From: a virus
Lineage: Duplodnaviria; Heunggongvirae; Uroviricota; Caudoviricetes
IMG/VR virus record: IMGVR_UViG_3300011202_000010
Coordinates: 114,589-178,588 of that record
Reading direction: 5' to 3' (one strand)
Length of the DNA stretch: 64,000 nucleotides
This document shows, piece by piece, positions 1 to 60,225 of this stretch. The stretch's first letter is position 1, and each line of letters begins with the position of its first letter. Below the pieces are notes generated by a model, which worked only from the letters and a program-made list of their open reading frames with translations, was not told where the DNA came from and ran no database searches. Made by a program: the position numbers and the translations under genes.

Positions 1-570
1 ATAAAACTCATCCGAATATTTTTCAATTTCAATATAATTATGTAAGAAATGAACATAATCCTGTATAAGCCAAAGATTAGGGCTAGGCCAAATTTCATTA
101 CAGTCAACTTCTTTTGTGTCTATCTCAATTAAATCCTTCTCTAAAGATTTTATAAATTTTTCATCCGCATGATTATTATTATTTTTTATCACATCAATAA
201 AACTTTTTAATTCTGCTTTCATTTCAGCACGACTTTTTTGATATGTTTTTTTAAATACTGACTTTAAAGAAATATCACGATTCATTTCTGTTGCATCAAC
301 TATACGTGATTTTATATAGGATATGTCATCTTTTATATTATTGGGATTAACTTCCTCTACAAACACATCAATATTACCATATTGATTTTTTATAAAAATA
401 TAACATAAATTTGAATCTTCATTAATGATGTATTTCACCTCTATATCTTTAATTTTTAATAGAGGAAATAAGGCTGAATGAGAAAAAAACTCATCACTTT
501 TATTTATTATTACGCTACGAAAATCGTTTTGTTTATTTATCGCATCATATAGGAAGTTAGTATTTTGCAT
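1..570 (-). CDS. Family-A paralogue, partial (3' end lies beyond the window start); hypothetical
   Basis: ATG at 570 on minus strand, open frame to position 1. N-terminus MQNTNFLYDAINKQNDF...DIEVKYI matches the N-termini of the 2071-3582 and 4317-5810 products (AINKxKxF, EIREVKY). Confidence 0.45.
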   Translation of the reverse strand, partial: MQNTNFLYDAINKQNDFRSVIINKSDEFFSHSALFPLLKIKDIEVKYIINEDSNLCYIFIKNQYGNIDVFVEEVNPNNIKDDISYIKSRIVDATEMNRDISLKSVFKKTYQKSRAEMKAELKSFIDVIKNNNNHADEKFIKSLEKDLIEIDTKEVDCNEIWPSPNLWLIQDYVHFLHNYIEIEKYSDEFY

Positions 571-677
571 TAGGTTAATATTCCTTAAATATTTTCATCA
601 GTATATCATGAAATTTGTATATCAATTAAAACAATAAAAACAGCCTCGTGGGAGACTTTTTTTATTATCTATATTTT

Positions 678-2051
678 TTAAACTTTATTAAATAACAATA
701 AATCTTCACAGAAATCTATTGCATTATTAAGAGCTTTCTCTCGCGTATCTCCTCCATCACAACTAAGTGGTAAAGGTTTTTTATCTTTCAATACGTTAAT
801 AAAATACTCAAGAGCATCTATCCATTCTTTATTTAAAACCCAATCTCTTTTTTGTTTATAGAATGATACTATCAATAACTTCTCTTCCTTGTCTATTACT
901 TCTGGCAGATCTTCAATATAGAGATTAGTTTGATGGTAAACAAATCCTTTTTCTTTTTCATCATAATCAAAACCACCACCATTTCTTAATAAAGCTGCTG
1001 AAATCATCTCAAATTTAGAACATGAGCATAGCGTATTCTGATAACGTAGCTGATAATCAAAAGATTTTATATTTTCAGGATAAACAATTTCATCCATTAA
1101 ACCTTCTTTTTCCAAAATATAAGCAACGGTGCTTAAAATAACTACAAACCCATTCATTAAACCTTTTTTATCTGCATGAACAACTTTACCATTTACACAT
1201 TTTAAAAGCATATTTTCAAATGGTCGCTCTTTCAAAGCACCTGATTTTATTTGTTCTATAAATTTCTTCTTACTCAATTTATTATTGTCTGAATAAATAT
1301 TAACACCATCTTTATCTAAAGTGATCCCATATCTCCAATCAAAATCTTGAATAAATAAAACATCATCTTTTACAAATGTTTCATAATGAAAAAACTGCGA
1401 CTTTGACGTTAAGACGGAAGATACTTTTTCCAATTTAATAGATAATCCCTTTAATGCTTTTTGAATAAAACCTAAATCTTCGGATATAGATTCTTCATAT
1501 AATGGCTCAATATAAAGTTCTTCTCCTGAAAATATACTTAACTCTTTATAAAAATTAGATGTCTTATCAATATAGTTAGAGCAATTAAATAAACATTTTT
1601 TTAATCCATCTTTCATGATAGCTGTTTTATTTTCATCTTCATTTCCATTACATTTATTATCAATTTCTTTTAATAATGCTTTAGGAGAAATTCCAATATT
1701 AAAATCAGCTTCAAAGATAGAAAATATAAAATCATGGTTGGATTCATATGAATCTAGTGGATTATCTAAAGAACCTTTTAATGTTTTAATATTAGGATTC
1801 TTATTAGCTTTCGTAGAGAAAATAGAAACCTTTCTTTTTTCTCTTTCTAAGATGATGATATATTTTTCTGAACCATTTCCTTTAAAGGATTTAATATTTT
1901 CTTCAATATCAATAACTTTATCGCTTGACCATAATTTAATAACGGCTCGACCAAGACTATTGTAATAATCTTCGTTATTTAATACTGTATTACGTAATAA
2001 GCTTTTTTCATTTAACCAAGATTCAATATTCATTTTTACCCTCTGTTCCAT
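678..2051 (-). CDS. Family-A paralogue 1, hypothetical (457 aa; true start may be MNIESW)
   Basis: Long ORF. Shares motifs GGGFDYDEKEKGFVYHQTNLYIEDL and SFDYQLRYQNT with the two neighbouring paralogues. Confidence 0.6.
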   Translation of the reverse strand: MEQRVKMNIESWLNEKSLLRNTVLNNEDYYNSLGRAVIKLWSSDKVIDIEENIKSFKGNGSEKYIIILEREKRKVSIFSTKANKNPNIKTLKGSLDNPLDSYESNHDFIFSIFEADFNIGISPKALLKEIDNKCNGNEDENKTAIMKDGLKKCLFNCSNYIDKTSNFYKELSIFSGEELYIEPLYEESISEDLGFIQKALKGLSIKLEKVSSVLTSKSQFFHYETFVKDDVLFIQDFDWRYGITLDKDGVNIYSDNNKLSKKKFIEQIKSGALKERPFENMLLKCVNGKVVHADKKGLMNGFVVILSTVAYILEKEGLMDEIVYPENIKSFDYQLRYQNTLCSCSKFEMISAALLRNGGGFDYDEKEKGFVYHQTNLYIEDLPEVIDKEEKLLIVSFYKQKRDWVLNKEWIDALEYFINVLKDKKPLPLSCDGGDTREKALNNAIDFCEDLLLFNKV

Positions 2052-2070
2052 GAACCCAATTTATACCATT

Positions 2071-3582
2071 TTATTTTTTAAGAGCTTTTAATTTCTTATT
2101 TAAGTATTTTACCATTAAGGTATATTCATTTTTCTGCCTTTCTTTATCATCATTAAAAGCTTGAGATAATACTTCATTCTCATTAAATATTTTAACTAAT
2201 TTCTCAAAAGCGTTTAACCATTCAGTGTTTAAATATGTTATTTTATCTAACATAAATTTTGCACCAGATAGAGTATAAACTTTGTCATCGAATTTATTAT
2301 CTATTCCCTTCTCTGTCTCCAAATCTTCAATATAAGAAACATCTCTATAACAAATATTACCTGTTTCTTGATTATAACTTTGACCTGCCCCAATTAATAA
2401 AAACGTATGGAATATAAAATCATTTTCTTTTGTTTTATACTTTGTGAAAAAATATTTTCTTTGATAATCATATTCTGTTATATCGGTTTTATAATCAGGA
2501 GATCCAAGACCTTCTTCTACCATAACGTAAGAAGAGCTTTCAACATCTGAAAGAAATACATTCATAGGAAGACCACCATCAGCATACTCAACCTCTCCAT
2601 CTTTAACAACAAGAATAGCGTGTTTGAAAAAATCTACACTGTTATTTTTTAATGCTGCCTTAAATCGTGCTTCTTCTTTACTTTCTTCAATATGAATAGT
2701 TTCAAGATAATATACAGTAAAATTATCTTTATCACCTACAAAGAATAATGTGCAGCCTTGATCGTCTAATACTAATACATCATCTTCCATCCAAACATGA
2801 TTATCTAGATCATTAAAAGTAAATGGTTGCTCTCTTGTAAATTTCTCTTTTTTACAAATAGATTGGAAAAACGCCCTTTTTACTTTTATATCTTCTAAAT
2901 GTTTAGATGCTTCATTTTTTGCTTCAACCATTAACTCTTTGAAGAAATCATCACTATACAATTTCATTCCAGTCATGGTATTTAAAAATTTGTTAAGACA
3001 TACAAGTTTATAAAGATAATAACAGACCTCAACATCTTTTGATGTTTCTTGTTTTTTCATTTCTGTAAAGTTTTCAAGCATTTTTTCTACATCTGCTGAA
3101 TCTTTACCTTCTTGTTCAAGTTTGTTAACGAAAGCCTCCATGAGGTTTATCATTTCATCAGAGAAAAAATTGTGAGTTGTTCTCTGATTGCTGATTACCA
3201 ATGGGAAACCATAAATTTTATTTTCCTTAGCTTTCAGATTACTCAATCCATAACTTAACAAGTATTCTACAGTCTCGTCTTTATCATCTTGTTTATGACG
3301 AACCATATAAGCTTTAATAGCATTCCCTTTATTTAACTTTTCCAGAACATAGATAAAGTCAGTAGTATCAAAATATTTAACTTCTCTGATTTCGTCAGAA
3401 TAAAGATTTGTCATGAGAGATTTGTCAAAAAGAGTATAGAGAGAACTAATCATATCATCTCTGAATGATTTTTCTTTATTGATAGCATTTTGAATAAAAT
3501 GAGTTTCTGACATTATAAGTTCCTTAAAGTTTATATTTTTTCTATTATATCTTAGACCTTTATGAGTAACAACAAAAACCAC
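2071..3582 (-). CDS. Family-A paralogue 2, hypothetical (503 aa)
   Basis: Motifs FNDLDNHVWMEDDVLVLDDQGCTLFFVGDKDNFTVYYLET and EYDYQRKYFFTKY are shared with 4317-5810. Confidence 0.65.
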   Translation of the reverse strand: MVFVVTHKGLRYNRKNINFKELIMSETHFIQNAINKEKSFRDDMISSLYTLFDKSLMTNLYSDEIREVKYFDTTDFIYVLEKLNKGNAIKAYMVRHKQDDKDETVEYLLSYGLSNLKAKENKIYGFPLVISNQRTTHNFFSDEMINLMEAFVNKLEQEGKDSADVEKMLENFTEMKKQETSKDVEVCYYLYKLVCLNKFLNTMTGMKLYSDDFFKELMVEAKNEASKHLEDIKVKRAFFQSICKKEKFTREQPFTFNDLDNHVWMEDDVLVLDDQGCTLFFVGDKDNFTVYYLETIHIEESKEEARFKAALKNNSVDFFKHAILVVKDGEVEYADGGLPMNVFLSDVESSSYVMVEEGLGSPDYKTDITEYDYQRKYFFTKYKTKENDFIFHTFLLIGAGQSYNQETGNICYRDVSYIEDLETEKGIDNKFDDKVYTLSGAKFMLDKITYLNTEWLNAFEKLVKIFNENEVLSQAFNDDKERQKNEYTLMVKYLNKKLKALKK

Positions 3583-3594
3583 CCGAAGGTGGCT

Positions 3595-3765
3595 TTAATC
3601 TTTATACTTCCATTTATCTGGAGTATAGTAAACATAACTTGTACCAGAAAACCAAAGGTTTCCGATTCGATATAATTCAGCTTCTTCTCCATGAGGAGAA
3701 ATCGTTTTTACTGTTACATTCTCTTCTGGTAATTCTTTACGTGGAGATTTCCAGTTATTAGCCAT
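3595..3765 (-). CDS. Small ORF (56 aa, MANNWKSPRKELPEENVTVKT...), hypothetical; absent from the ORF track because it is under 60 aa
   Basis: AAGAGG SD 5 nt upstream of ATG. Hairpin CCACCTTCGGGTGG plus T-run terminator follows. Fills an otherwise empty gap. Confidence 0.35.
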   Translation of the reverse strand: MANNWKSPRKELPEENVTVKTISPHGEEAELYRIGNLWFSGTSYVYYTPDKWKYKD

Positions 3766-3776
3766 ACAACCTCTTT

Positions 3777-4226
3777 TTAGTTTACTTTTTTATTATCTTT
3801 AAAAACGATGCTTGGATATTTTTTAGATTCAAATGAAAAAATAGGTTCAACATATTTAATACCATCTTCGCTGTATGAAGACTGACAAATACCTGAAATA
3901 TTATTTTCATTACAGAAAGAGAACATTTTTTCAATCAACGCTTTGGCAATACCTTGACCTCTTAATGAAGGTTCAACACCAATATTCATCATTGCCCACT
4001 GGCAATCAGAATTCCCACTCCATCCTTTTTCGTAATATGAAAGACAGAGTAGACCAACAGCTTTTTCTCCATCAATGACTGCAAAATACAAGTTTTCACC
4101 ATTAAAGGAAGCATCAAAGTAAGGGACTTTTTCGTTAAAAAGATCATCATATAACTCATAAGCTTCTTTTACATCGCCTTTGAAGGTCATTTTTAATGAT
4201 TTCGAAAAAACTTGTACGTTTAACAT
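3777..4226 (-). CDS. GNAT-family N-acetyltransferase
   Basis: Motif A R-G-Q-G-I-A-K-A-L (Q/RxxGxG/A) in VEPSLRGQGIAKALIEKMF; 149 aa. Sits inside the family-A array. A TTGTGC-N17-TATAAT promoter lies upstream. Confidence 0.7.
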   Translation of the reverse strand: MLNVQVFSKSLKMTFKGDVKEAYELYDDLFNEKVPYFDASFNGENLYFAVIDGEKAVGLLCLSYYEKGWSGNSDCQWAMMNIGVEPSLRGQGIAKALIEKMFSFCNENNISGICQSSYSEDGIKYVEPIFSFESKKYPSIVFKDNKKVN

Positions 4227-4257
4227 ATTTTTAAACTCTCTTGTTTACATTGATGCC

Positions 4258-4286
4258 ATTATAACAAAAACACACATCATGCACAA
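4258..4286 (-). promoter_or_regulatory. Promoter, TTGTGCAT -35, 17-nt spacer, TATAAT -10
   Basis: Minus strand reads TTGTGCATGATGTGTGTTTTTGTTATAATGGCA. Drives 3777-4226. Confidence 0.55.
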
Positions 4287-4316
4287 GTTTAAAAATCCAT
4301 CCTTGGATTGTTTTTC

Positions 4317-5810
4317 TTACATTAGATGGATGTTATTTTCAATCTCTTTCAACTTATCTAATGTTTGCTGTCTAGCAGCGATAGCTTTATCTTTTTCTTC
4401 ATAGAAAACTGAATAATAACTATTTTCTGAAAACATTTTTACAAGGTGTTTAAATGCTTCATACCAATCTTTATTCAATGTTTTTTCAACTTGTTCTATG
4501 CTAAGAAATTCTGGCTGATAAACAATTTTATGTGATGGCTTTTTATTGATACGACTATCTTCTTCTTTTTTTAAAGTTTTTAAATATTCAATATCGCTAT
4601 ATTCAAAACAACCTTTTTCGCTCTTATAATCAGCGCCACCACCTAAAGTTAGGAAGGTGCGCATAAGGAAACTTAACTCATTCATGCCATATTTAGTATA
4701 GAAATAGTCTCTTTGATATTCATAGCTATAAATATCTTTATCGTATTTAACTTCTTCTAACCCTTCATTTCTCATAGCTTCTACTGAATATCGGATGTCT
4801 AACTTAAATACATACATCAATGAACTATCAGAAGCATAAATCACTTTACCATCTTTAACATCAAGCACTGTATGTTCAAAAAATCCATCTTTTTTACCAT
4901 TAAGATAAGTATTTAACTTTATCATTTCATCTTCAACAGAACTATATTCAGTATGTAGGAAATAAACAGTGAAATTATTGTCATCGTTTCCTTCAAAATA
5001 AAAAGTACAGTTTTGATCATTAATAAATAAATTATTATCCTGAACCCATACATGATTATCTAAATCATTAAACTCAAATTTGTTTTCTTTTGTAAACCCA
5101 TGCACATCACACATTTTTTTCAAATAGTTTTTCTTAACGATCCAATCACTCAGATATTCGGCGTTGATTTTAGTTGGTTCGTCAGCTAAAGATAAATAAA
5201 AATCATGAGAATACTCTTTCATATCAACATATTTAGCTAACAATTTGTTATAACTTAAGATAGCATCAATACTTGAACTTGTAAGTAAAGCATTAGCAAG
5301 AAAATCATCACTATTATTTTTTGTATATTCAATAACTTGCTTAACTTTTTTTATCATTTCTTGATTATTTTCTGCTTCAAATCTTTCCAGCATAATATTA
5401 AATTGTTCAAGAATATCTTCTACACTATGATCTTGTTTGAAAAGATTAATAGTCATTACTTTTTCAAAAGAATAAATCTCATCCTTCTTTTCTTTCATAC
5501 ATTGAAGACCATAATAAAGATGCTCAAGATCTTTTTTATCTTTTTCAAAATCATGAATCATTTCCCAATATACATTGAGCACTTTTCCTTTTTTCTCAAA
5601 AATATAAAAATAGTCATTTTCAGGGAGACGAATATATTTTACTTCCCTAATTTCATCTTTATGAAGTGGGAATAATAGATGATCCGATTCAAAAAATTTA
5701 ATCGTTGCTTTTTTTACATCTTCACAGAAATCTTTATTTTTATTAATGGCTGTTTCTGTATAGTTAACTTTGTTCATCAGGACTCCTTTTAGATTATAAA
5801 ATATTGACAC
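4317..5810 (-). CDS. Family-A paralogue 3, hypothetical (497 aa)
   Basis: Motifs FEFNDLDNHVWVQDNNLFINDQNCTFYFEGNDDNNFTVYFLHT and SYEYQRDYFYTKYG. Confidence 0.65.
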   Translation of the reverse strand: MSIFYNLKGVLMNKVNYTETAINKNKDFCEDVKKATIKFFESDHLLFPLHKDEIREVKYIRLPENDYFYIFEKKGKVLNVYWEMIHDFEKDKKDLEHLYYGLQCMKEKKDEIYSFEKVMTINLFKQDHSVEDILEQFNIMLERFEAENNQEMIKKVKQVIEYTKNNSDDFLANALLTSSSIDAILSYNKLLAKYVDMKEYSHDFYLSLADEPTKINAEYLSDWIVKKNYLKKMCDVHGFTKENKFEFNDLDNHVWVQDNNLFINDQNCTFYFEGNDDNNFTVYFLHTEYSSVEDEMIKLNTYLNGKKDGFFEHTVLDVKDGKVIYASDSSLMYVFKLDIRYSVEAMRNEGLEEVKYDKDIYSYEYQRDYFYTKYGMNELSFLMRTFLTLGGGADYKSEKGCFEYSDIEYLKTLKKEEDSRINKKPSHKIVYQPEFLSIEQVEKTLNKDWYEAFKHLVKMFSENSYYSVFYEEKDKAIAARQQTLDKLKEIENNIHLM

Positions 5811-5958
5811 ATTATAACAGTTTTAAAAATGTTTTACTATATTTTTTTGTAACTATAACCGATTGATTTTAAAGATAATTTAAAAGCGTAAAAATTATAT
5901 TTAACTAGCTTTTCTATGCGAAAATATGGTAAAATACTTAAAACAATAGGAGAAAAAG

Positions 5959-6510
5959 ATGATAAATATTAAATTAATTTGCTCTCATTTAATTACGGTT
6001 GGTACTGTAGAAATGTTTGAAAAAGCACCTGATTGGGCAACTCATCTTGTTAGCTTTAATGGAAGTAAATATTTTACAGATACAGCCAATCCCGAACCTC
6101 TTACTCGTTATTCTAAAGCTGCTCATCCTTATAATGAAGGACACTTTAATGAGCATATGTTTAAGTCAAAACATAAATTTATTGTTGAAGCAGCTAGGAT
6201 TAATCAAAAACAAGATTCTTGGGATGGCGAAGGAAGACCTCAAGTTGGTCAAGTTTGTGTTTTAGATTCTGATATCAACGTTGTCATTCTTGGGAAAACT
6301 AAAGATATTTTCAATAGAACAGTTTACACTGTTCAGGATGTAGATAGTCATGAAATTTTCATCGCTCGCTCTGATGAGTTTATGCCTTATTATTCTGATA
6401 GTGATTTAAAAGATCGTGAAGTTCTTATAGGCATTTCTAATATTCTTAGAAAAAGTATTGATGATGAACAAGTTTTGAAAATGTTTAGACTTTTTAAGGA
6501 AAATTCTTGA
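5959..6510 (+). CDS. Hypothetical protein (183 aa)
   Basis: AGGAG SD before the ATG. Bidirectional terminator at 6572-6594. Confidence 0.55.
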   Translation: MINIKLICSHLITVGTVEMFEKAPDWATHLVSFNGSKYFTDTANPEPLTRYSKAAHPYNEGHFNEHMFKSKHKFIVEAARINQKQDSWDGEGRPQVGQVCVLDSDINVVILGKTKDIFNRTVYTVQDVDSHEIFIARSDEFMPYYSDSDLKDREVLIGISNILRKSIDDEQVLKMFRLFKENS

Positions 6511-6571
6511 TGACGGCTCCATGAGCCTGTTACTACTACTATTAATGTTTTCCTTTTATTAAATATAAAAA

Positions 6572-6594
6572 AAGCGGCTGGGCCGCTTTTTTAT
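6572..6594. terminator. Bidirectional intrinsic terminator
   Basis: Hairpin GCGGCTGGGCCGC with an A-run before and a T-run after. Confidence 0.6.
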
Positions 6595-6742
6595 TTAATT
6601 TTTTTACTTATTATTATTTTTTATTTCATCTTCTTTTTTACTTTCTTTTAAAAAATGATCATATAATCCAGAGCAATCTTCATTTCGCTGGGAATGTAAA
6701 CCAATCATTGGAAAATCCTCATTTTTCATTTTTTCATCCTCT

Positions 6743-7498
6743 TTAAAGTGTCGCATTTTGATGTTCCTCTTTTATTGGGTTAGTTTGAGATACTATTTTC
6801 TTAAACCTTTCTAAATCAACCTTATCATTCATTAAGTATCGATTTATATTGAATATATTAGCTGTTTTAACATTAACTGGCGCACTATATACACCAAAAC
6901 CAGCAATATAACTATTTTTCTTTAGAGCATCAATTAACTCTTTATTCTTTTTCCCATATGGATAAACATAAATAGGAACAAATTTTCCAGTGGTTCTTAT
7001 TATTTGAGCTTTACTTGTTTCTACATCATGTTCCGGGAATCCAAGAAAATCTTTAACAAAATGGGTATGCGAATGATTAACAAATGTAAAATTATCTGCT
7101 CCATAAGCTTCTATATCATCTCTTTGTAAATAAGTTCTATTTTTAAATGTCTGATATTCCGTTATTAGAGCAAACATTGCAGGAAAACTGTATTGTTTTA
7201 GTACTTCCATTGCTGCTTTTTGTGTAGCCCAACCATCATCAAATGTAATAACAACACTTTTGGGTGGTAAGCTTTCTCTCTTTTTTATAGCTTCTACTAA
7301 ATCCATAGCAGGAATAACATTATAATTCTTTTCATAAAGATATTTCATTTGCTGCTTAAATAACTCTGGCGTTGTATTCATATCGTTTTTATAATGCGCT
7401 ATCTGATGATACATTAAAACAACTGATACATCCTTAGCTTGAGAATACATTGAAGCACTTGCCAAACATCCAGCCAACATCCATTTTAAAATTTTCAT
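6743..7498 (-). CDS. Secreted polysaccharide deacetylase (NodB/CE4 family)
   Basis: N-terminal signal peptide MKILKWMLAGCLASASMYSQA. NodB motifs VVITFDDGW and NHSHTHF. Confidence 0.75.
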   Translation of the reverse strand: MKILKWMLAGCLASASMYSQAKDVSVVLMYHQIAHYKNDMNTTPELFKQQMKYLYEKNYNVIPAMDLVEAIKKRESLPPKSVVITFDDGWATQKAAMEVLKQYSFPAMFALITEYQTFKNRTYLQRDDIEAYGADNFTFVNHSHTHFVKDFLGFPEHDVETSKAQIIRTTGKFVPIYVYPYGKKNKELIDALKKNSYIAGFGVYSAPVNVKTANIFNINRYLMNDKVDLERFKKIVSQTNPIKEEHQNATL

Positions 7499-7519
7499 TT
7501 TTTTCCTTATATTTAATAA

Positions 7520-8653
7520 TTATTTGTAATAACCAATTCCGTTTTCACGACACCAAATAGAAAGAACATTTGCTTCATGAGGTTTTAAAGATCTGTTAGC
7601 AAAACCTCTAGCTTGAGAAACTGTATGATAGCTACTCACTTCTACTGTTGCTACTCTTTTTTCTTCTGCATAACCCCAAGGAGTATTTGGGCGAACCTTT
7701 AACGACCAAATAGAACAACTGTTATTGATACATTTAGAACGATAACTATAAACACAGTGATGCATTTTATTGCCTTCTTCTGCTAAGGCTTTACCTTGCA
7801 AAATTTGTGTAATTGTCCAAACTACTTCTTTACCTTGCTCATCTTTACGAATATATTCTCCATTAGGAATATCAAAACCTTTCCAAGAATAACCAGAGTG
7901 CTCTTTAATACGACGAAGCTCATAGTGCCAATCTTTAACTCTTTCTAATAACGTTTTAATAGTGAAGCCTTGACCAAAAATTGAAAACTCCCTGTTTTCA
8001 TTCTTTTTACTTTCTAAGAAATCTAAAATATCATCAAGTTGTTCAATACTTTCTGGAACATTAGTAGCGAAGAAACGAGCACAATCACGCCAAAATTCGT
8101 TATTTTTTGGTTTTTTACCAAGCTTAGATCTAGCTATACGGAACGCAATACCATCACCTGCACCAGCACAAAACGCCGTAGCATAATAAATAGCTTCATT
8201 AATGCTTAATGGTTTTATACATGACATAAAAACATGAGTTTCTTTTTTAGTCATAAAGTCTTTTAGATATTCTTTATGTAATGAACCTCCAGTTCCTGCG
8301 CAAATATACCAATCATGATATTCATTTTTTGCTATTTTTTGGGAGTTTTCACCATATCTTCTCTGAGGATTTTCTTGCTTATACCAAGCTTGCTCTAAAA
8401 TTTTTGGAACCGGATATTTTACAAATAGATGCTTAACCATTTCAAGACGTTGCTTGATACGGTCTGATGAACGAGTTTTAAGTTGAAAATCACATACAGG
8501 ACGTATGCATTTTACTAAGATTTCATTAGGGAAATCATGTTCTATAGGAACATTTTCTTTTCCTTTTTGTTTAAGCTTTTTTCCATGATGAGAAAGCATT
8601 GCAAGCTCTTGCTCTGCTTTAATAATTTTTTCAGCTTTTGTTAGCTTAGACAT
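7520..8653 (-). CDS. PcfJ-like protein (tentative), 377 aa
   Basis: C-terminal MHHCVYSY... region recalls PcfJ-like domain proteins of plasmids and phages. Motif recalled from memory, not searched. Confidence 0.35.
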   Translation of the reverse strand: MSKLTKAEKIIKAEQELAMLSHHGKKLKQKGKENVPIEHDFPNEILVKCIRPVCDFQLKTRSSDRIKQRLEMVKHLFVKYPVPKILEQAWYKQENPQRRYGENSQKIAKNEYHDWYICAGTGGSLHKEYLKDFMTKKETHVFMSCIKPLSINEAIYYATAFCAGAGDGIAFRIARSKLGKKPKNNEFWRDCARFFATNVPESIEQLDDILDFLESKKNENREFSIFGQGFTIKTLLERVKDWHYELRRIKEHSGYSWKGFDIPNGEYIRKDEQGKEVVWTITQILQGKALAEEGNKMHHCVYSYRSKCINNSCSIWSLKVRPNTPWGYAEEKRVATVEVSSYHTVSQARGFANRSLKPHEANVLSIWCRENGIGYYK

Positions 8654-8733
8654 TTCTTTTCCTCAAAGTTTTTATGCTCTCATAATACTCTTTATCTCTA
8701 TAAAAAACAATCTTTTTATATAAAGATATTAGG

Positions 8734-9015
8734 TTAACTTACTGAAAAATCATGCTGTTCATCACCTACACATGTATAATGCTCATAGTAAGATGTAACA
8801 TAATCACACACTACTGGAGCACCACATTCCTCACAAATCCAGTCTGGATTACTCCTTGAAAAATCTTTCGCTAATGCTTCTTCTATCTGTTTCGCTTTAT
8901 CTTTTAAATCTTGTCCAGACAAATGAGTTTCATTTTTCAATAAAATTTTTACAGCGTTATCTAAAAATTTTTTGTTTTTAGGATTTTCATTACAATAAAT
9001 TTCTACAATATTCAT
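8734..9015 (-). CDS. Small Cys-rich hypothetical protein (93 aa)
   Basis: CEECGAPVVCDY...HYTCVGDE: four or five Cys spaced like a zinc ribbon. Confidence 0.45.
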   Translation of the reverse strand: MNIVEIYCNENPKNKKFLDNAVKILLKNETHLSGQDLKDKAKQIEEALAKDFSRSNPDWICEECGAPVVCDYVTSYYEHYTCVGDEQHDFSVS

Positions 9016-9140: not shown

Positions 9141-9878
9141 TTGAAAACTGTCAAACTATATCACGATGATTGCTTAAAAATCATGGAAACTATTCCAACA
9201 GCAAGCGTTGATCTTATTTTATGTGATTTACCCTATGGAACAACTCAAAATGAATGGGACACTATAATTCCTTTTGATTTATTATGGGAACAATATATGC
9301 GTATTAGTAAAGGTGCTATCGTTCTCTTTGCAGCGCAACCTTTCACATCGCTTCTTATAAGCTCCAACTTAAAATACTTTAAATATGATTGGGTATGGGA
9401 AAAAACAAAGGCTACAGGCCATTTAAACGCTAAAAAACAGCCTTTACGAAATAAAGAAGATATTCTTGTATTTTATAAAAAACAACCTACCTATAATCCT
9501 CAAATGAGTAAAGGTGAACCTTATAAAAATAAAACAGGAAAAGATATTAATGGTTCGTCATCCATGACAGCATCTTATGGTAAATATACCAATAAAAGAA
9601 ATGAAAATACGGGTTTTAGATATCCAAAACAAATACTTAAATTTAACACTGTTCAAAGAAATACATTACACCCTACTGAAAAACCCGTTCCATTATTAGA
9701 ATATCTTATTAAAACTTATACTAATAAAGGGGATTTGGTTCTTGATAACTGCATGGGTTCTGGTAGCACTGGTGAAGCGGCTGTTAATCTTGATAGACAT
9801 TTTATTGGGATAGAACAAGAACTTAAGTTTTTTACTAAAGCTTTAATAAGAATAGATAATGCAAGATTAAAAAAATAA
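9141..9878 (+). CDS. N6-adenine DNA methyltransferase, beta-class (DPPY before FxGxG)
   Basis: LILCDLPYG (DPPY motif IV), HPTEKP, and C-terminal DNCMGSGSTGEAA (motif I). TTG start with AAGGAA SD. Confidence 0.8.
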   Translation: MKTVKLYHDDCLKIMETIPTASVDLILCDLPYGTTQNEWDTIIPFDLLWEQYMRISKGAIVLFAAQPFTSLLISSNLKYFKYDWVWEKTKATGHLNAKKQPLRNKEDILVFYKKQPTYNPQMSKGEPYKNKTGKDINGSSSMTASYGKYTNKRNENTGFRYPKQILKFNTVQRNTLHPTEKPVPLLEYLIKTYTNKGDLVLDNCMGSGSTGEAAVNLDRHFIGIEQELKFFTKALIRIDNARLKK

Positions 9879-9899
9879 AGCCCCGAAGGGCTTTATTTT
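9878..9899. terminator. Bidirectional intrinsic terminator
   Basis: Hairpin AGCCCCGAAGGGGCT with flanking A and T runs. Confidence 0.6.
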
Positions 9900-10122
9900 A
9901 TTTCTTTGATAATTTATCTCTTATAAATGCTTGTAGATTTAATCCTGCTTTATTCGCTTCATTTATTAGATATTGATATGTTTCTTCTGGCAATCTAACA
10001 CTTATGTTCACCATACCCAAAACTTTATCAATTTCTTTTACTTCTTTTTGTGATACGACTTCAATATATCTCTCATCGCATCCTAACTCTCTGCTTTCCC
10101 AAGGGCATAATTCTTTTTTCAT
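9898..10122 (-). CDS. Small protein with a ribbon-helix-helix-like C-terminus (likely start MKKELCPW, 74 aa)
   Basis: GAGGAG SD before the internal ATG. ISVRLPEETYQYLINEANKAGLNLQAFIRDKL resembles Arc/CopG RHH folds. Divergent from the methyltransferase gene. Confidence 0.45.
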   Translation of the reverse strand: MKKELCPWESRELGCDERYIEVVSQKEVKEIDKVLGMVNISVRLPEETYQYLINEANKAGLNLQAFIRDKLSKK

Positions 10123-10359: not shown

Positions 10360-11361
10360 TCAAAACTTAATTCCAAAATGATCATTATAATATTTATCTT
10401 TTTCTTTAGTTTTCGTTCCTTTTAAAACGTCATATTTTTGACTTAATTGAACGATCTGATCAAAAGTGATATAGTTATTGTATGTAGATATACTATTACC
10501 TCCAAAATATGCATCACGATTTAAGTTTTCTAAAGGAATATCAATGATTAATTGGCTGAAACTATGACCAATTTTAAATATTTCTCTTAGTTTTTTAGTT
10601 TCTCCATTTTTATAATATACTTTCATTTGTTGTATTTGTTTATTGTAATTACCAATAATTTCATTTTCGTAAAATCTATTAGCTTGACTACGATTTTTTA
10701 TCTGCCTGTATTCTTTCCATAAGTTTTGATCTATAAAATACGTGTTTGGATCATATCCTTTTTCAGTTAATAACTTTCCTAAATTATTAAAAATAACATC
10801 TCCTGCATATACACTACCAAATTCAGAAGCATTAGAACTTAACATTAATACTGAATTTCTAAACTTATCAAAATCTTTTTTATCATTTGTTTTTATATCT
10901 TCATATAAATCTATTACTGATTTCTTTTTCACGGCATCACTTGCTGATAAACCCCTTGTGTTATAAGCAATACTTTCTAATGTTTTATTCGCATCAACAT
11001 ATCTATATTTCATTTGTAGCATACTATTTAATCCTTTATCTTCACTAAACAAATTATTAAAAGTGATATTTCCATCTTGCATATACATATTTCCAAATAG
11101 TCTTAAATCTTCTTTAAATTGACTATCTGTATAAGGAATCTCATCTATTTTATTTTTAAATGTTTTATAGTTTTCTAATTGACTATAATAACTTGTTTTA
11201 TATTCTATAGTGTTATTGACTTGTACTACTTGGCTTGCTACAACTGAAAGCTCCCATCCAGTAGCAAAAACAAAAGGAGTCATAAAAGCTAATAGGATAC
11301 TTTTTTTCAGTCCTCTATTTATTTTATGATTGGTTTTTATTTTATCTTTAGTTAGTATCAT
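10360..11361 (-). CDS. Family-B paralogue 1, membrane-anchored hypothetical (333 aa)
   Basis: Starts MILTKDK. N-terminal TM helix. C-terminal YYKNGETKKLREIFKIGHSFSQLIID is shared with the next two genes. Confidence 0.6.
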   Translation of the reverse strand: MILTKDKIKTNHKINRGLKKSILLAFMTPFVFATGWELSVVASQVVQVNNTIEYKTSYYSQLENYKTFKNKIDEIPYTDSQFKEDLRLFGNMYMQDGNITFNNLFSEDKGLNSMLQMKYRYVDANKTLESIAYNTRGLSASDAVKKKSVIDLYEDIKTNDKKDFDKFRNSVLMLSSNASEFGSVYAGDVIFNNLGKLLTEKGYDPNTYFIDQNLWKEYRQIKNRSQANRFYENEIIGNYNKQIQQMKVYYKNGETKKLREIFKIGHSFSQLIIDIPLENLNRDAYFGGNSISTYNNYITFDQIVQLSQKYDVLKGTKTKEKDKYYNDHFGIKF

Positions 11362-11385
11362 TATATTTTCTCTTTTATATTTTAT

Positions 11386-12450
11386 TTAAAACCAATAGAA
11401 TAAATTCATATTTTCATAGTATTGTCTATTTTCTTGATTTACTAAGCCTTGCATTTCACTGTATTTTAAAACAAATTCACTTGGATCTATATATCCACTA
11501 ATATAACCAGAAATACCTATATTCATATTATTAAAATATAACCCTTTTCTTTCGAGTGTAGGGGCGTTTTCTATCATTATCTTACTGTAAGCATTACCTA
11601 TTTTAAAAACCTCTCTAAGTTTGTTATAATCTTTATTTTTGTAATAATTTAATAGGGTTTTCATATTATATTCACCTATTCTCTTTTTTTCTTCAAAAAA
11701 CTTTTCTCTTGACTCTTTTGATTTTGCGAATTCGTTTTGCTCGTTATATATTTTTTCTTCTTCGAGGTTTTTACTTATTAAACTTGTTGGAACTGAATAT
11801 AAATCAGCAGAGAAACCTTTGCTTAGCGTGTATTGTCTAATATTATTTAATTCATCTTTTATTAAAGGATAATTTATAAGATTATTATTACTTCCCATCA
11901 TAAATGTAGAAGACAATATTCTATTAAACTTTACTACTCCCCCATTTTTCTCATTTAATAGTTCTTTATATATTCTTGCCTTTTGATACGGGTTATAGCC
12001 ATTATTATCTGAATAATTCATAGAACTTGTTTCTTTTAAAAATTGTGGGAAAAACTCTTGCCGATCTAAATATTTTAATTTCATTTCAGTAAAATTATAA
12101 AACCCTACTTCTTTTGTATTAAATACCTTATCTGAAACGGCATTATTATTAACATATAAATATTCAAATAATGATAAGTCCTTTTTAAAGTCAGCTTCGG
12201 TATAAGGAACAGCTTCCATAGCTTTATAAAAGTTATTATAACTGTTTAAATTGTTATAATATTCTATTTTTTCTTTTACCAAATTAGAGATTTTAACAAC
12301 ATCAGAAGAAAGTATTACTGTATTACCTGCAACAAATAATCCACTAACAATAGCTATGGCAAATAAAGTTTTCTTCATTTTGTTTAATGGGTTTTTATAA
12401 ATCTTTTTTATTTTTGAACTATTTATTGTTTTGTCTTTTGTTAATATCAT
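11386..12450 (-). CDS. Family-B paralogue 2 (354 aa)
   Basis: MILTKDK start, TM helix, YYKNKDYNKLREVFKIGNAYSKIMIENAP. Confidence 0.6.
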   Translation of the reverse strand: MILTKDKTINSSKIKKIYKNPLNKMKKTLFAIAIVSGLFVAGNTVILSSDVVKISNLVKEKIEYYNNLNSYNNFYKAMEAVPYTEADFKKDLSLFEYLYVNNNAVSDKVFNTKEVGFYNFTEMKLKYLDRQEFFPQFLKETSSMNYSDNNGYNPYQKARIYKELLNEKNGGVVKFNRILSSTFMMGSNNNLINYPLIKDELNNIRQYTLSKGFSADLYSVPTSLISKNLEEEKIYNEQNEFAKSKESREKFFEEKKRIGEYNMKTLLNYYKNKDYNKLREVFKIGNAYSKIMIENAPTLERKGLYFNNMNIGISGYISGYIDPSEFVLKYSEMQGLVNQENRQYYENMNLFYWF

Positions 12451-12507
12451 TTAAACCTCTAATATTTTCAGATTTTTTTATAAATTTTTATTTAATATAA
12501 TAATCTC

Positions 12508-13635
12508 TTAGTAATTAAATATTATAAATTCTTTCCCATCATAATATTTGCTTGATTCTTCATTATAAGTTCCTTTTAGCTTTGCCACCTTTTTGGCATC
12601 ATTCATATAATATCTTTTAAAAGATTCTGAACCTTCGTCCTTTTCATCTTCTATTAAACCTATGTCACGCAATCCTGCTTCAACTAATAATGATGGTCTT
12701 ATTCCGTATTCCTCAAACTTACCCTTATTGGAAATGTCATCAACAATAATGTAAGAAAAACCATTTAATACTTTAAATATTTCCCTAAGCTTTTCATAAT
12801 CCCCATTTTTATAATATTCTTTTATTTTCTCTAATGATTCTTTTCTTGCTCCTGTAAAATCATAATCAACCTTATCTAAAGCTTTTTCATAATCACTTTT
12901 ATTTTTATAAGATTTCTCATGACCAATTATTCCTGAAAGAGCTTTCATATATTCTTGGTGTTTATTTTTCCCTAAATATAATAAATCTTCTGAAAATCCA
13001 TTTTCTTTTATTAATTGACGTATATTTTCATATATTTTATCATCAATAAAAACAGCTTTACCAAGAACTCCATTAAGTCTTATTGATGCTGATCTATAAT
13101 CTAACTTTTGTTTTTCATTAACATTATAATTAAGACGAGTAAGATTAAAAAAATTAGAATATTTTTTATTATTATAAGAGTTATAATCTATACTATCATT
13201 TTTGAATCTATTTGCTTCACCTATTATAGGTTTGAATATTTCATCAATATTATGACTTTTTATTGTGGCTCTATCTACTATAAAATTTCTCATCTCATAG
13301 TTACCATATCTTATTTTCATAAGAGGTATATCGTTGTTTCCAAATATATACCCAAAAATTTTTAGGTCCCTTTTAAATTCTTCATCTGTATAAGGAATAC
13401 TGTTTATTTTTTCTTTAAAATTTTCATAGTTATCCAAACCAGAGAAATGTTTCATGCTGGTATCTATGCTGTTGGAAATATTTATACTATTTGTTAATGT
13501 AACAGAGACTTCCCAACTAAATATAGCGCTAAATAAAATAGCTCCACCTATTATACTTTTTTTTATCAAACTTCTTTTTTTTAATGAGGTTTTTTCATTG
13601 TTTTTAAATAGTGTTTTATTTTTAGTGAGTATCAT
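12508..13635 (-). CDS. Family-B paralogue 3 (375 aa)
   Basis: MILTKNK start, TM helix, YYKNGDYEKLREIFKVLNGFSYIIVDD. Confidence 0.6.
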   Translation of the reverse strand: MILTKNKTLFKNNEKTSLKKRSLIKKSIIGGAILFSAIFSWEVSVTLTNSINISNSIDTSMKHFSGLDNYENFKEKINSIPYTDEEFKRDLKIFGYIFGNNDIPLMKIRYGNYEMRNFIVDRATIKSHNIDEIFKPIIGEANRFKNDSIDYNSYNNKKYSNFFNLTRLNYNVNEKQKLDYRSASIRLNGVLGKAVFIDDKIYENIRQLIKENGFSEDLLYLGKNKHQEYMKALSGIIGHEKSYKNKSDYEKALDKVDYDFTGARKESLEKIKEYYKNGDYEKLREIFKVLNGFSYIIVDDISNKGKFEEYGIRPSLLVEAGLRDIGLIEDEKDEGSESFKRYYMNDAKKVAKLKGTYNEESSKYYDGKEFIIFNY

Positions 13636-13743
13636 AGCTTGTTCCTTTAATTTTATTAATATATGATACCTTAAGTCATCTTTTAACTACAAATTTTTGA
13701 TTACTTTAAATACAAAAAAAGACTGCTATGCAGTCTTTTAACC

Positions 13744-14034
13744 TTAACAATATTGAGATATCTTATATCCTAATTCCGTTAATCCATATGAATGTGGATT
13801 AGAGCTTTTATCAACTTTTAATAGATCTTTATCTTGCAGAATCTTAATAGCGATATTAAGTTCATCACAAGTTAAGTTACATGATTGAGAAAACTTCTTT
13901 TTGTTCCCAACATTAAAGCAAACACCTGTAGGTAAAGGATGAGCTGCTCCTTTTTCAAAATCGTATTTTTTATTATCCAAAAATCTCAATACTGATTTTT
14001 CACAAGGATTTAACTCAATATTTACTTTTTTCAT
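13744..14034 (-). CDS. Hypothetical protein (96 aa)
   Basis: ORF with a TTGTGC-N17-TATAAT promoter at 14066-14094. Confidence 0.5.
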   Translation of the reverse strand: MKKVNIELNPCEKSVLRFLDNKKYDFEKGAAHPLPTGVCFNVGNKKKFSQSCNLTCDELNIAIKILQDKDLLKVDKSSNPHSYGLTELGYKISQYC

Positions 14035-14065: not shown

Positions 14066-14094
14066 ATTATATAACAGATAGTAGTCATGCACAA
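14066..14094 (-). promoter_or_regulatory. Promoter TTGTGCAT-N-TATAAT (17-nt spacer)
   Basis: TTGTGCATGACTACTATCTGTTATATAAT; drives 13744-14034. Confidence 0.55.
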
Positions 14095-23254: not shown

Positions 23255-23821
23255 TTATTGGAATGAGAATGTTATTGTACCATTTTCTCCTGATATCTTA
23301 TCACAAACATCAGCAGTATTGGATACGCTATAAGACACGCTAGCCATGTCATTTTTAGCCCAATAAGAACCTACAGCAATAATTTCCATAGTTGGACCAA
23401 CAGCAGTTATTAGTTTAACACAGACATCTTTAGGAACATTATCGTATTGAACGTTTGCGACTACTTTACCAAAAGATGCCCAATTTGTAGCACTTAATGT
23501 TACTTTACCTCCAAAACTATTAACAACACCTGTTACTGTATTTCCACTCTTCTGCAACATGTTATCAGGAAATATATTGGCATTTATTGCTATCGTGTTA
23601 TTTATATTCCCAGCTATTGTTGCTTGTGAGGCGTATAATGCTAATATTCCCGATCTTATTGTTGCTATATTTTTTGCCTCAGCATCCACTGCCTGAGATG
23701 TTCTTACTTTGGGATAAACAATAAAAGCTGCAACGATTAATGCTGCTATTATTCCTAATACCAATAATAATTCCAATAAAGAAAATCCCTTTCCTTTGTT
23801 CATTTTTAAAAATTTACTCAT
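23255..23821 (-). CDS. Type IV pilin / pseudopilin-like protein (prepilin-type N-terminus), about 188 aa
   Basis: N-terminus ...KGKGFSLLELLLVLGIIAALIVAAFIVYPKV has G-1, F+1, E+5 and a hydrophobic helix. Paralogue of 24038-24598 and 56743-57303. Confidence 0.8.
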   Translation of the reverse strand: MSKFLKMNKGKGFSLLELLLVLGIIAALIVAAFIVYPKVRTSQAVDAEAKNIATIRSGILALYASQATIAGNINNTIAINANIFPDNMLQKSGNTVTGVVNSFGGKVTLSATNWASFGKVVANVQYDNVPKDVCVKLITAVGPTMEIIAVGSYWAKNDMASVSYSVSNTADVCDKISGENGTITFSFQ

Positions 23822-24037: not shown

Positions 24038-24598
24038 TTATTCAAAATAGAAATTTATTACTGTATTATTGTCTGTTATTTGACCACAAGCTTTTGAAAC
24101 ATTTGCTACACTATAAGGAACTCCAACATTTTCATTTAAAGCCCAATATCCACCGGCTGTTACTAAAAACATATTAGAGCCTACTGCGGTAATTAACTTT
24201 GTACAAAGCTCTGTTGGAACATTATTATATTGTAAAGTAACTACTGTTTTTCCATACCATAAACCTGTAACTAAAATTACGTCCCCTCCAAAACTATTTA
24301 CAACTTTTGAAACAGCGCTTCCATTTTTTATAAGCATGTTGTCTGGAAATATTTGCGCCTGTATTGCTATTGAGTTATTTAATCCTCCTGATATTGTTGC
24401 TTGAGAGGCATATAAAGCTAATATTCCTGATCTTATTGTTGCAATATTCTTTGCCTCGGCATCTATTGATTGAGAGTTTCTTACTTTTGGATAAACAATA
24501 AATGCTCCTACTATAAGAGCTGCTATAATTCCTAGTACTAATAATAACTCTAATAAAGAAAATCCTTTTTCTTTTTTAACTCTATAAAAAATATTCAT
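24038..24598 (-). CDS. Type IV pilin-like protein, 186 aa
   Basis: KEKGFSLLELLLVLGIIAALIVGAFIVYPKV. Shares AEAKNIATIRSGILALYASQATI with 23255-23821. Confidence 0.8.
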   Translation of the reverse strand: MNIFYRVKKEKGFSLLELLLVLGIIAALIVGAFIVYPKVRNSQSIDAEAKNIATIRSGILALYASQATISGGLNNSIAIQAQIFPDNMLIKNGSAVSKVVNSFGGDVILVTGLWYGKTVVTLQYNNVPTELCTKLITAVGSNMFLVTAGGYWALNENVGVPYSVANVSKACGQITDNNTVINFYFE

Positions 24599-27663: not shown

Positions 27664-27696
27664 AACCTCTTCTTAATGCACAAGTATTAAATATAC

Positions 27697-30630: not shown

Positions 30631-30782
30631 AGAAATGGTTGTGGTTTCATTGACTATTTACCCGTACACTCTTTCGCCTCTGACAACGAAATACAGCGAA
30701 TGACTCTGTTCTCCCGGCTCATCGTCCAGTGTGCTTTTATTCAGAATTCCCATTCTCGGTAATCAACGAACCACAACCATCT
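30631..30782. ncRNA. Candidate structured RNA (strand undetermined) inside a 300-bp GC-enriched intergenic island
   Basis: A 14/15-bp long-range inverted repeat, GAAATGGTTGTGGTT ... AACCACAACCATCTC, encloses about 120 nt at roughly 45% GC. Flanking sequence is about 30% GC. No credible ORF. Confidence 0.35.
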
Positions 30783-30918
30783 CAAAAATCTGGCCTTGTC
30801 TTTATATATCCTGCTCTTGGGCTAGGAGGCTTTCACCCGACATTGACACCCGTTTAAAACGTTCCAGTCTGTGCCAACAAAACCATTCTAATACATCTTT
30901 CTATCAAATGCAAACACT

Positions 30919-32483: not shown

Positions 32484-32512
32484 AAAAAAGCCTCATCAGA
32501 GGCTTTTTATTT
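32484..32512. terminator. Bidirectional intrinsic terminator
   Basis: AGCCTCATCAGAGGCT hairpin with an A-run before and a T-run after. Confidence 0.6.
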
Positions 32513-36349: not shown

Positions 36350-36378
36350 ATTATACTACCTTCTTTTATCATGCACAA
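36350..36378 (-). promoter_or_regulatory. Promoter TTGTGCAT-N-TATAAT (17-nt spacer)
   Basis: TTGTGCATGATAAAAGAAGGTAGTATAAT; drives 35999-36307. Confidence 0.55.
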
Positions 36379-56381: not shown

Positions 56382-56457
56382 TGGTGCATTCGGTAGGATT
56401 TGAACCTACGACACCCGGATCTTCAATCCAGTGCTCTACCAACTGAGCTACAAATGC
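56382..56457 (-). tRNA. tRNA-Phe (anticodon GAA), 76 nt with encoded CCA
   Basis: Cloverleaf read by hand: acceptor GCATTTG/CGAATGC, anticodon stem CTGGA/TCCGG with loop TTGAAGA, T-arm GTAGGTTCAAATCCTAC. Confidence 0.8.
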
Positions 56458-56591
56458 ATTAGGCTTACTAGGTCAGGTGTTGTATCGGCCCACCTCTTAA
56501 ACGATAATAGGAAAGTCTGGTTTTTCTCCAAACGTGCTATTACCTTTTACGCCCACTCTTAGTCATCGGGCGCGACCTAATAAGTTTCATG

Positions 56592-56667
56592 TGGTTTCTG
56601 TAGGACTTGAACCTACACTCATAGCGGAACCCTGCCGCTACTGCTCTACCAATTGAGCCAAGAAACC
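56592..56667 (-). tRNA. Atypical tRNA or tRNA-like; nominal anticodon GGG (Pro) but non-canonical loop
   Basis: Perfect acceptor GGTTTCT/AGAAACC and T-arm GTAGGTTCAAGTCCTAC. The anticodon hairpin AGCGG-CAGGGTT-CCGCT has A33 and U37. Three extra nt between the D and anticodon stems. No encoded CCA. Confidence 0.45.
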
Positions 56668-56742
56668 AAAATATCTTATAACATCTTCTTTGTTAACGAG
56701 ATAAAGATAATAACAATATTTTTTATGATAAACAACTCTTTT

Positions 56743-57766: not shown

Positions 57767-57770
57767 TTTT

Positions 57771-57845: not shown

Positions 57846-57877
57846 ATTAGCACCAATCTCTTGATGCTATTTTGTTT

Positions 57878-58590: not shown

Positions 58591-58621
58591 AATAAAGGTT
58601 CTCTCATTAAGTTAGGTTGTC

Positions 58622-58650: not shown

Positions 58651-58656
58651 GCTTTT

Positions 58657-60222: not shown

Positions 60223-60225
60223 TTG

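Follow-up and report, generated by a model that had tools for sequence, protein, structure and literature searches.

A tandem trio of orphan paralogs with export-type N termini in an AT-rich, giant-phage-like accessory region

What could be the role of three adjacent genes that open with the same seven residues, drift apart along most of their length, and match no named protein family? The question arises in a 64,000-nucleotide (nt) stretch of the IMG/VR virus record IMGVR_UViG_3300011202_000010 (positions 114,589 to 178,588; Caudoviricetes), hereafter called the window, in which genes A, B, and C lie side by side on the minus strand. We found the family to which they belong to be real, rare, and unannotated. 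Our preferred, tentative reading, to which we assign a probability of roughly 0.4, is that the trio encodes Sec-targeted accessory proteins that face the periplasm and act on the host envelope.

A first-pass annotation, made from the sequence and its translations, had described three neighboring genes opening with MILTK[DN]K, and the list of open reading frames (ORFs) bears this out (Table 1). Each gene has an ATG start and its own purine-rich, Shine-Dalgarno-like ribosome-binding site, with spacers of 57 nt between A and B and 24 nt between B and C. A six-frame scan of the window confined M[IL]LTK to the three trio starts, and a hidden Markov model (HMM) of the family likewise detected exactly three copies, namely, A, B, and C. 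Recoding of stop codons that would fuse or extend the genes was considered and rejected: the stops are TAA (A and B) and TGA (C), and long ORFs cover 82% of the window under the standard code.

In a multiple alignment, pairwise identity among A, B, and C is 27 to 33%. BLASTP with SEG masking aligned them over 270 to 300 residues (E values of 1.5e-12 for A-B, 5e-19 for A-C, and 1.5e-14 for B-C), and the outcome was unchanged when the first 50 residues were deleted; the similarity is therefore full-length homology and not a compositional coincidence. The C-terminal block reported in the first-pass annotation, YYKNGDYxKLREIFK..N.FS, is present in all three proteins, and because the homology persists under masking, it is not a product of low complexity. 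The annotation was too narrow in treating it as the only shared block, since a second, equally strong one follows directly after the hydrophobic segment. This upstream block (block 1) holds the sole residues that are invariant across the family (Y77, F82, and D85 in C numbering), and the C-terminal block (block 2) is the best-conserved part of the family profile, which spans 22 clusters at 50% identity.

The duplications that produced the trio are ancient. DNA identity between copies is 64 to 72% in block 1 (repeat family D1), 68 to 71% in block 2 (repeat family D2), and 64 to 76% in the blocks overall, the codons of the heptapeptide differ synonymously between copies (repeat family D3), and A, B, and C share no gene conversion or recombination tracts. 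Recent duplication or gene conversion was rejected on the same block identities. Within the heptapeptide, M1, L3, T4, and K5 are invariant in 28 orthologs and paralogs; given the differing codons, the constraint acts on the protein and not on the DNA.

The order A-B-C and the flanking genes are kept in every close relative recovered (loci L001 to L006 and L009). Upstream lie two small ORFs and a 96-amino-acid (aa) winged-helix-like gene (here, the wHTH gene); downstream lie a 74-aa ribbon-helix-helix (RHH) gene, an N6/N4 DNA methylase gene, a PcfJ-like gene, and a polysaccharide deacetylase gene. Comparison of presence and absence in more distant genomes revealed copy numbers of one (L012), two in tandem (L007), at least three in tandem (L011), and five, the last in the same slot of a 215-kb JGI contig (L013) with spacers of 9 to 15 nt or overlaps. 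Array spacing is tight (9 to 57 nt or overlapping), and in a neighbor-joining tree, the L013 copies and each of A, B, and C branch separately and deeply. In some relatives a 35-aa ORF sits between A and B (positions 5885 to 5992 of L004 and 7150 to 7257 of L005 and L006), where the window has the 57-nt spacer.

Ratios of nonsynonymous to synonymous divergence (dN/dS) across four genomes were 0.30 for A, 0.22 for B, and 0.21 for C, compared with 0.06 to 0.27 for neighboring genes. All three genes are thus maintained by purifying selection and are nonredundant. Orthologs are 61 to 95% identical for A (P0013 to P0016 and P0018 to P0020), about 90% for B, and 85 to 100% for C. Gene A forms a local divergence valley, with nucleotide identity to related loci of 71 to 79% versus 85 to 100% in the flanks; the pair L001 and L004 is 72% identical in A and fully identical (100%) beyond the middle of C. 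The central segment of A (about aa 141 to 200) has a dN/dS of approximately 0.85 to 0.9. The earlier description of the trio as diversifying paralogs therefore needs qualification: the genes are true paralogs and A is a local divergence hotspot, but the duplication is old, the order is fixed, and every copy is under purifying selection.

A basic N-terminal region of 20 to 27 residues, with seven to nine lysines or arginines, precedes the hydrophobic segment in A, B, and C, and the net charge after the segment is about zero. By the positive-inside rule, this charge distribution would place the N terminus in the cytoplasm and the helical domain of about 300 residues outside it. The design is constant among 37 family sequences, in which an N-region of 20 to 31 residues (in a few cases longer, up to 45) carries 5 to 11 lysines or arginines and hardly any acidic residues. 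Next comes an apolar core, exactly 15 residues long in most members, and then, usually, a W/Y-D/E pair; A and C have this aromatic and acidic pair after their cores. We infer Sec export and the topology of the three proteins from this N-terminal design.

A single N-terminal transmembrane (TM) anchor had been proposed for each protein. The hydrophobic segment is indeed present in all three, but it is marginal as a TM helix. Kyte-Doolittle maxima over 19 residues are 1.64 (A), 2.25 (B), and 1.56 (C), where the classical TM threshold is 1.6, and the uncharged stretch measures 15 to 16 residues in A and C and 22 in B, where a bilayer-spanning helix takes about 18 to 20 residues or more. The B segment is thus TM-helix-like, and those of A and C are borderline by this measure. 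In our reading of the alignments, many members have a pattern of small residues at -1/-3, [IAVG]-x-[SAGT], ahead of the W/Y-D/E pair, which resembles a signal peptidase I site. Peptides cleaved by this enzyme typically have a basic N-region of fewer than 10 residues, a core of about 7 to 15, and small residues at -3/-1. The 15-residue core and the basic charge agree with such a peptide, but the N-region is far longer than those of the ordinary signal peptides of the window, such as MKILKWMLAGCLASASMYSQA preceding KD (Table 1). Conservation of the N-terminal tip argues that it is retained and functional, against cleavage, and the related motifs ML(K)TK.. and NKTLF occur in the L013 clade. The domain should lie outside the cytoplasm in either case, whether tethered by an uncleaved signal anchor or released after cleavage by signal peptidase.

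Three other identities suggested by such N termini were rejected. The trio proteins are not type IV pilins or pseudopilins, as they lack the conserved Gly(-1)/Glu(+5) and match none of the Pfam models PilS, N_methyl, and Bundlin. They contain no cysteine and hence no lipobox, so they are not lipoproteins. A twin-arginine translocation (Tat) signal peptide was discarded because the family alignments have no conserved RR motif.

AlphaFold2 modeled B poorly when given close homologs only (predicted local distance difference test [pLDDT] score of 60). For C, a diverse alignment of 25 sequences gave a mean pLDDT of 80.7 and a predicted template modeling (pTM) score of 0.80, with the five models ranging from 76 to 81. 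The model of C consists of one continuous helix from residue 16 to residue 60 and then about 15 helices packed as a globular domain, with zero strands. A search with this model found no structural neighbor, none of tail fiber or adhesin type, and no similarity to virion proteins in BFVD. The trio domain is apparently a new all-helical fold, as far as this model goes.

Database searches indicated that the family is rare. A word-indexed search of 5.8 billion clusters recovered 23 plus 8 family proteins, all of them metagenomic and unnamed; P0052 was the one addition from a further search of this kind with a broad alignment. Among 1.84 billion representatives at 50% identity, an exhaustive profile search yielded 22 clusters at E ≤ 1e-3, all of whose members have 311 to 379 aa and the same architecture; a metagenome scan with a closer alignment yielded two loci. 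B had no tblastn match among 50,697 phage records, and megablast of the trio locus against phages and plasmids gave a single short match, in the methylase gene. No relative turned up when IMG/VR and 185,579 GTDB species genomes were scanned by pattern and tblastn. Neither A, B, or C matched Pfam, PHROG, NCBIfam, or PADLOC, including models for superinfection exclusion and antiphage defense in PADLOC, Pfam, and PHROG, and nothing recurrent or significant emerged among 25 diverse members; the first-pass annotation was thus right that there is no recognizable catalytic motif, and known domains are absent as well. A sequence profile search of the PDB also gave no match.

The window itself has a GC content of 25 to 34% throughout and a cluster of seven tRNA genes. 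Pfam domains are absent from nearly all of its large ORFs. Several ORFs strongly match PHROG families whose function is unknown, and one of these encodes a protein common to jumbo phages, both Rak2/CBB-like and others, that infect Yersinia, Erwinia, Serratia, Pectobacterium, Vibrio, and Aeromonas; related contigs reach 162 to 234 kb. From these features together, we tentatively conclude that the window belongs to the accessory part of an AT-rich giant phage that is uncultivated. Its sequence fits the standard genetic code, TAG ends 1 of 68 long ORFs, and one of the seven tRNAs has a CTA anticodon (amber suppressor; labeled tRNA-Pyl by ARAGORN). Beyond the window, TAG might be recoded in part of the genome.

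Many genes in the window are directed to the cell envelope. They include a polysaccharide deacetylase with a signal peptide, two GtrII/GtrC-like enzymes, lipoproteins, and at least eight pilin-like genes with a K/RGFSL(L/M)E class III signal, of which five match Pfam PilS, N_methyl, or Bundlin and three are unusually large (455 to 552 aa). Such a pilin load is uncommon for a phage, and a literature search for jumbo phages with pilins turned up nothing of use. The Gtr-like enzymes, the lipoproteins, the secreted deacetylase, and the pilin-like genes point to a diderm host with lipopolysaccharide and pili. This bears on the proposal that the trio proteins are surface exposed, which we do not uphold: in a Gram-negative host, to which the lipoproteins, the KGFSLLE-type pilins, and the Gtr O-antigen enzymes point, the domain would be periplasmic.

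The trio is very probably cotranscribed, because no terminator-like site was predicted between A and a bidirectional intrinsic terminator beyond the RHH gene, the first such site after A-B-C(-RHH). Cotranscription of the RHH gene is possible, but the 237-nt gap after C could hold a promoter. On the upstream side, an intrinsic terminator closes the wHTH gene and separates it from A; five loci keep its hairpin, and in L013 the stem carries compensatory changes. The roughly 80 nt between this terminator and A are nearly invariant among L001 and L003 to L005, although the coding regions differ at a synonymous divergence (dS) of 0.2 to 0.65, and they contain a weak sigma-70-like pair of hexamers, which we read as a candidate promoter. 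Many neighboring genes are preceded by the motif TTGTGCAT-N(12-14)-TGnTATAAT. The box TTGTGCAT occurs 12 times in the window versus 2.7 expected, with 10 copies on the minus strand upstream of genes, and the motif probably marks an early promoter class of the element, served by host RNA polymerase (sigma-70).

We therefore favor the following account of A, B, and C, which would be three ancient, nonredundant phage accessory proteins, paralogs within a rare orphan family. Each would consist of a lysine-rich cytoplasmic N terminus with a conserved tip, a 15-residue apolar segment, and an all-helical globular domain of about 280 to 330 residues. Through the Sec pathway, this domain would reach the periplasmic face of the host inner membrane, either tethered (N-in, C-out) or released, and cleavage, if any, would occur just ahead of the conserved W/Y-D/E pair. 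The genes would be cotranscribed from a conserved promoter region of their own, within an early-type, envelope-directed accessory region, and their products would act on the host envelope during infection as a set or a hetero-oligomer. We speculate that they protect the infected cell from competing phages or remodel its envelope, in the manner of superinfection exclusion, with gene A as an exchangeable, specificity-type member. Exclusion or envelope protection is the most plausible function because the copy number is accordion-like, gene A appears exchangeable, and the neighborhood is envelope directed and of early type; a specific exclusion function would claim about half of the probability given to the reading as a whole. 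A bolder form of the proposal, which we regard as doubtful, is that two to five paralogous periplasmic proteins of new fold, tethered to the inner membrane, form a hetero-oligomer whose exchangeable subunit A blocks competing phages or rewires the envelope and whose cytoplasmic tip is a docking or regulatory signal, making up an unrecognized envelope module of giant phages.

Several observations weigh against the envelope reading. No homology to exclusion, lysis, or envelope proteins was detected, and the proposed function draws on topology and neighborhood. The 15-residue apolar core (Kyte-Doolittle maxima of 1.56 to 1.64 in C and A) is short for a TM helix, and the N-region is overlong for a signal peptide. 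The host is probably Gram-negative, as judged from the envelope genes of the window. The region upstream of A lacks the TTGTGCAT box, and both promoter class and expression timing are read from that motif. The divergence of gene A is mostly synonymous too (dS of 0.65); so high a dS argues for alleles that are old or exchanged, and the pattern resembles recombinational exchange of old alleles more than proven positive selection. The phage identity of the window is drawn from indirect features, and none of its genes encodes a capsid, portal, or terminase protein. In addition, the protein index lists a JGI contig of 1,021,904 bp with proteins identical to B (P0001) and C (P0025). To our knowledge, this length far exceeds that of any phage genome, and the listing may reflect a coassembly artifact, a concatemer, or a cellular or episomal origin.

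Other explanations share parts of this picture. The trio might form a bitopic inner membrane scaffold, in which the cytoplasmic tip (MILTK[DN]K, or NKTLF elsewhere) docks a phage or host partner and the periplasmic parts assemble as a hetero-oligomer following the logic of PilN, PilO, and GspM, perhaps in the service of phage pilins. Like those proteins, A, B, and C would be side-by-side bitopic paralogs with a short conserved cytoplasmic N terminus, one TM segment, and a periplasmic domain. The tip is conserved as protein in A, B, and C orthologs despite codon differences, which is unusual for a cleaved signal peptide, a related motif recurs in the L013 clade, several paralogs keep a fixed order and tight spacing, and the phage encodes at least eight pilin-like proteins in the window. 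We nevertheless consider a scaffold unlikely. The modeled domain comprises about 300 all-helical residues, as opposed to about 100 in a ferredoxin-like fold; Pfam gives no PilN, PilO, or GspM match; and a copy number varying from one to five is odd for a machine of fixed stoichiometry. The window has no ATPase, platform, or secretin domain of a type IV pilus or type II secretion system, and no prepilin peptidase was seen there. Linkage of the family to pilin genes was itself rejected, as the pilin motif is missing within about 10 kb of the family in all 13 loci. An improbable role is that of lysis or lysis control proteins, either holin/antiholin-like (T4 T and RI) or i-spanin-like type II membrane proteins. 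The trio shares the topology of T4 holin T, RI, and Rz (a short cytoplasmic N terminus, one hydrophobic segment, and a helical periplasmic part), and the segments of A and C have the marginal hydrophobicity of signal-anchor-release domains. Homology is lacking, however: no Pfam or PHROG holin, antiholin, or spanin matched at E ≤ 1, save one noise-level holin (E of 0.075) in 1 of 25 members. The neighbors of the trio are the wHTH, RHH, DNA methylase, and PcfJ genes, with no adjoining gene for an endolysin or an o-spanin lipoprotein, three to five paralogs are not known for lysis genes, the modeled domain is globular and not an extended coiled coil, and the promoters in the neighborhood are of early type.

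A heptapeptide common to paralogs that are otherwise 25% identical could also be a capsid-targeting or propeptide signal, as in the internal proteins of T4, in which case the proteins would be packaged in the virion and the helix would insert into the host membrane upon ejection. Giant phages often carry paralogous head or ejection proteins. We judge this explanation to be quite improbable, since a basic N-region with an apolar core behind it is the classic mark of Sec/YidC targeting and would send the protein into the membrane of the cell that makes it. In addition, the neighborhood is devoid of structural genes, BFVD virion proteins show no similarity to the trio, and the region looks early or accessory. 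The receptor-binding or adhesion role raised in the first-pass annotation, with surface display and diversification under host range selection, has the least to recommend it and seems very improbable. Gene A is the most divergent gene of its neighborhood, with a central dN/dS of about 0.9, as this role would predict, but B and C are about 90% conserved with a dN/dS of about 0.2. Receptor-binding proteins of phages carry no export signal and are assembled in the cytoplasm. The trio combines an export signal with an all-helical globule that has no beta-rich fiber or adhesin fold and no such structural neighbor, an inner membrane anchor could not reach the surface of a diderm host, and no tail genes adjoin the trio.

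The systems closest in kind to the envelope-acting proteins that we favor are T4 Imm and Sp and P22 SieA, phage superinfection exclusion proteins at the inner membrane or in the periplasm. Like them, the trio proteins would be phage-encoded and nonstructural, made in the infected cell and directed to the inner membrane or periplasm by an N-terminal hydrophobic segment, and their genes lie in a variable accessory region. Unlike them, the trio shows no sequence similarity to these proteins, measures 333 to 375 aa versus about 80 to 160 aa, belongs to a family with one to five tandem paralogs, and has an all-helical globular domain that is novel as modeled. The N terminus also recalls the extended signal peptides (ESPR) of autotransporters and two-partner secretion proteins, in its long N-region with a conserved N-terminal motif, ordinary hydrophobic core, and plausible signal peptidase site. 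It differs in that the trio does not match the ESPR Pfam model, its passenger is not a beta-helix or autotransporter, and cleavage is putative.

Giant phages devote much of their genomes to orphan paralog arrays, and arrays of membrane-targeted proteins are commonplace among them; nothing here yet shows a new kind of system. The trio is a clean and tractable example, with a confident model of an apparently new fold, an export signal, a conserved slot holding one to five copies, and a member with the behavior of an exchangeable allele. If its role is exclusion or envelope remodeling, the family would join the few known periplasmic factors of phage-phage competition and would also help to mark out a clade of AT-rich giant phages that are uncultivated. 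Otherwise, it is one more orphan family, and the finding alone opens no long-standing question.

Table 1. Positions of the trio genes, their conserved parts, and other features in the window
Feature	Position	Strand	Details
Gene A	12508-13635	minus	375 aa; family HMM E = 7.7e-102; fast-evolving, mosaic copy
Gene B	11386-12450	minus	354 aa; most TM-like hydrophobic segment; identical to P0001
Gene C	10360-11361	minus	333 aa; most conserved copy; identical to P0025
Heptapeptide of A	13615-13635	minus	MILTKNK
Heptapeptide of B	12430-12450	minus	
Heptapeptide of C	11341-11361	minus	
Apolar core of A	13513-13557	minus	aa 27-41, SIIGGAILFSAIFSW
Apolar core of B	12325-12369	minus	aa 28-42
Apolar core of C	11254-11301	minus	aa 21-36
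Block 1 of A	13346-13437	minus	L.NY..FK.KI..IPYTD..FK.DL..F
Block 1 of B	12158-12249	minus	
Block 1 of C	11087-11178	minus	
Block 2 of A	12740-12816	minus	YYKNGDYEKLREIFKVLNGFS
Block 2 of B	11570-11646	minus	
Block 2 of C	10541-10617	minus	
C-terminal tail of A	12511-12525	minus	...IIFNY
C-terminal tail of B	11389-11403	minus	...LFYWF
C-terminal tail of C	10363-10377	minus	...GIKF
Intergenic region upstream of A	13636-13716	minus	weak sigma-70-like pair TTGTAG-N18-TATCAT and ribosome-binding site
Intrinsic terminator	13717-13739	minus	10-bp stem and T-run
wHTH-like gene	13744-14034	minus	96 aa; weak HTH_45 match, E = 0.004; own strong sigma-70-like promoter with TTGTGCAT box
RHH gene	9898-10122	minus	74 aa; weak Pfam/NCBIfam matches: NikA-like 3.9e-4, CopG_antitoxin 9e-4, BrnA 0.03
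Bidirectional intrinsic terminator	9872-9899	both	12-bp stem, T-runs on each strand
PcfJ-like gene	7520-8653	minus	E = 2e-11; conjugative plasmid family
Ordinary signal peptide	6743-7498		MKILKWMLAGCLASASMYSQA preceding KD
TTGTGCAT boxes (examples)	4279-4286, 14087-14094, 27676-27683, 36371-36378, 43745-43752, 58643-58650, 62379-62386	minus	14087-14094 belongs to the wHTH-like gene
Pilin-like genes	23255-23821, 24038-24598, 37434-38801, 38947-40329, 40580-42238, 56743-57303	minus	
Pilin-like genes	47241-47786, 48128-48691	plus	
Lipoprotein genes (two)	42439-43681		adjoin the GtrII/GtrC-like genes
GtrII/GtrC-like tandem paralogs	43821-45431, 45448-47043	plus	Pfam 5e-36, PHROG 4e-50
Protein shared with jumbo phages	32511-33587		
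sraL match	30766-30878	minus	intergenic
tRNA cluster (seven tRNAs)	56382-60814		
tRNA with CTA anticodon	60226-60300	minus	ARAGORN label tRNA-Pyl

The C-terminal tails of the trio proteins are rich in aromatic residues (Table 1), and F, Y, or W is the last residue in 14 of 20 cluster representatives, an observation that includes family members P0034 to P0051. The tail recalls the C-terminal YxF signature of outer membrane proteins that is read by periplasmic PDZ proteases.

In L007 (positions 388 to 8832), about 14 tandem paralogs of another kind precede the two family members. Their products are about 190 to 213 aa long, with two hydrophobic segments in the center and the motif MF..S.VD.E.LK.F...YGE..L..LL..K..LTY.DI conserved at the C terminus, and the array is accordion-like and much larger than that of the trio.

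The RHH gene follows the array in L001 to L006 and L013, and both it, with its NikA/CopG/BrnA-like matches, and the PcfJ-like gene are syntenic with the trio even in the distant L013 clade, so that plasmid-type genes sit in a phage accessory region. In L003 (positions 4867 to 6674), on a 234-kb ENA scaffold, the methylase is cut to 83 aa by an inserted gene for a 494-aa TnpB/Cas12f-like protein (OrfB_IS605), while the near-identical Logan contig L002 has an intact methylase of 245 aa (4867 to 5604). This interruption points to an active element of the IS200/IS605 type in the phage lineage.

Elsewhere in the window, an intergenic segment matches the Rfam model of sraL, an enterobacterial Hfq-binding small RNA (sRNA), with 46.7 bits versus a gathering threshold of 39 (E of 4e-7). 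Either a genuine sRNA mimic or a chance match in AT-rich DNA could account for this hit.

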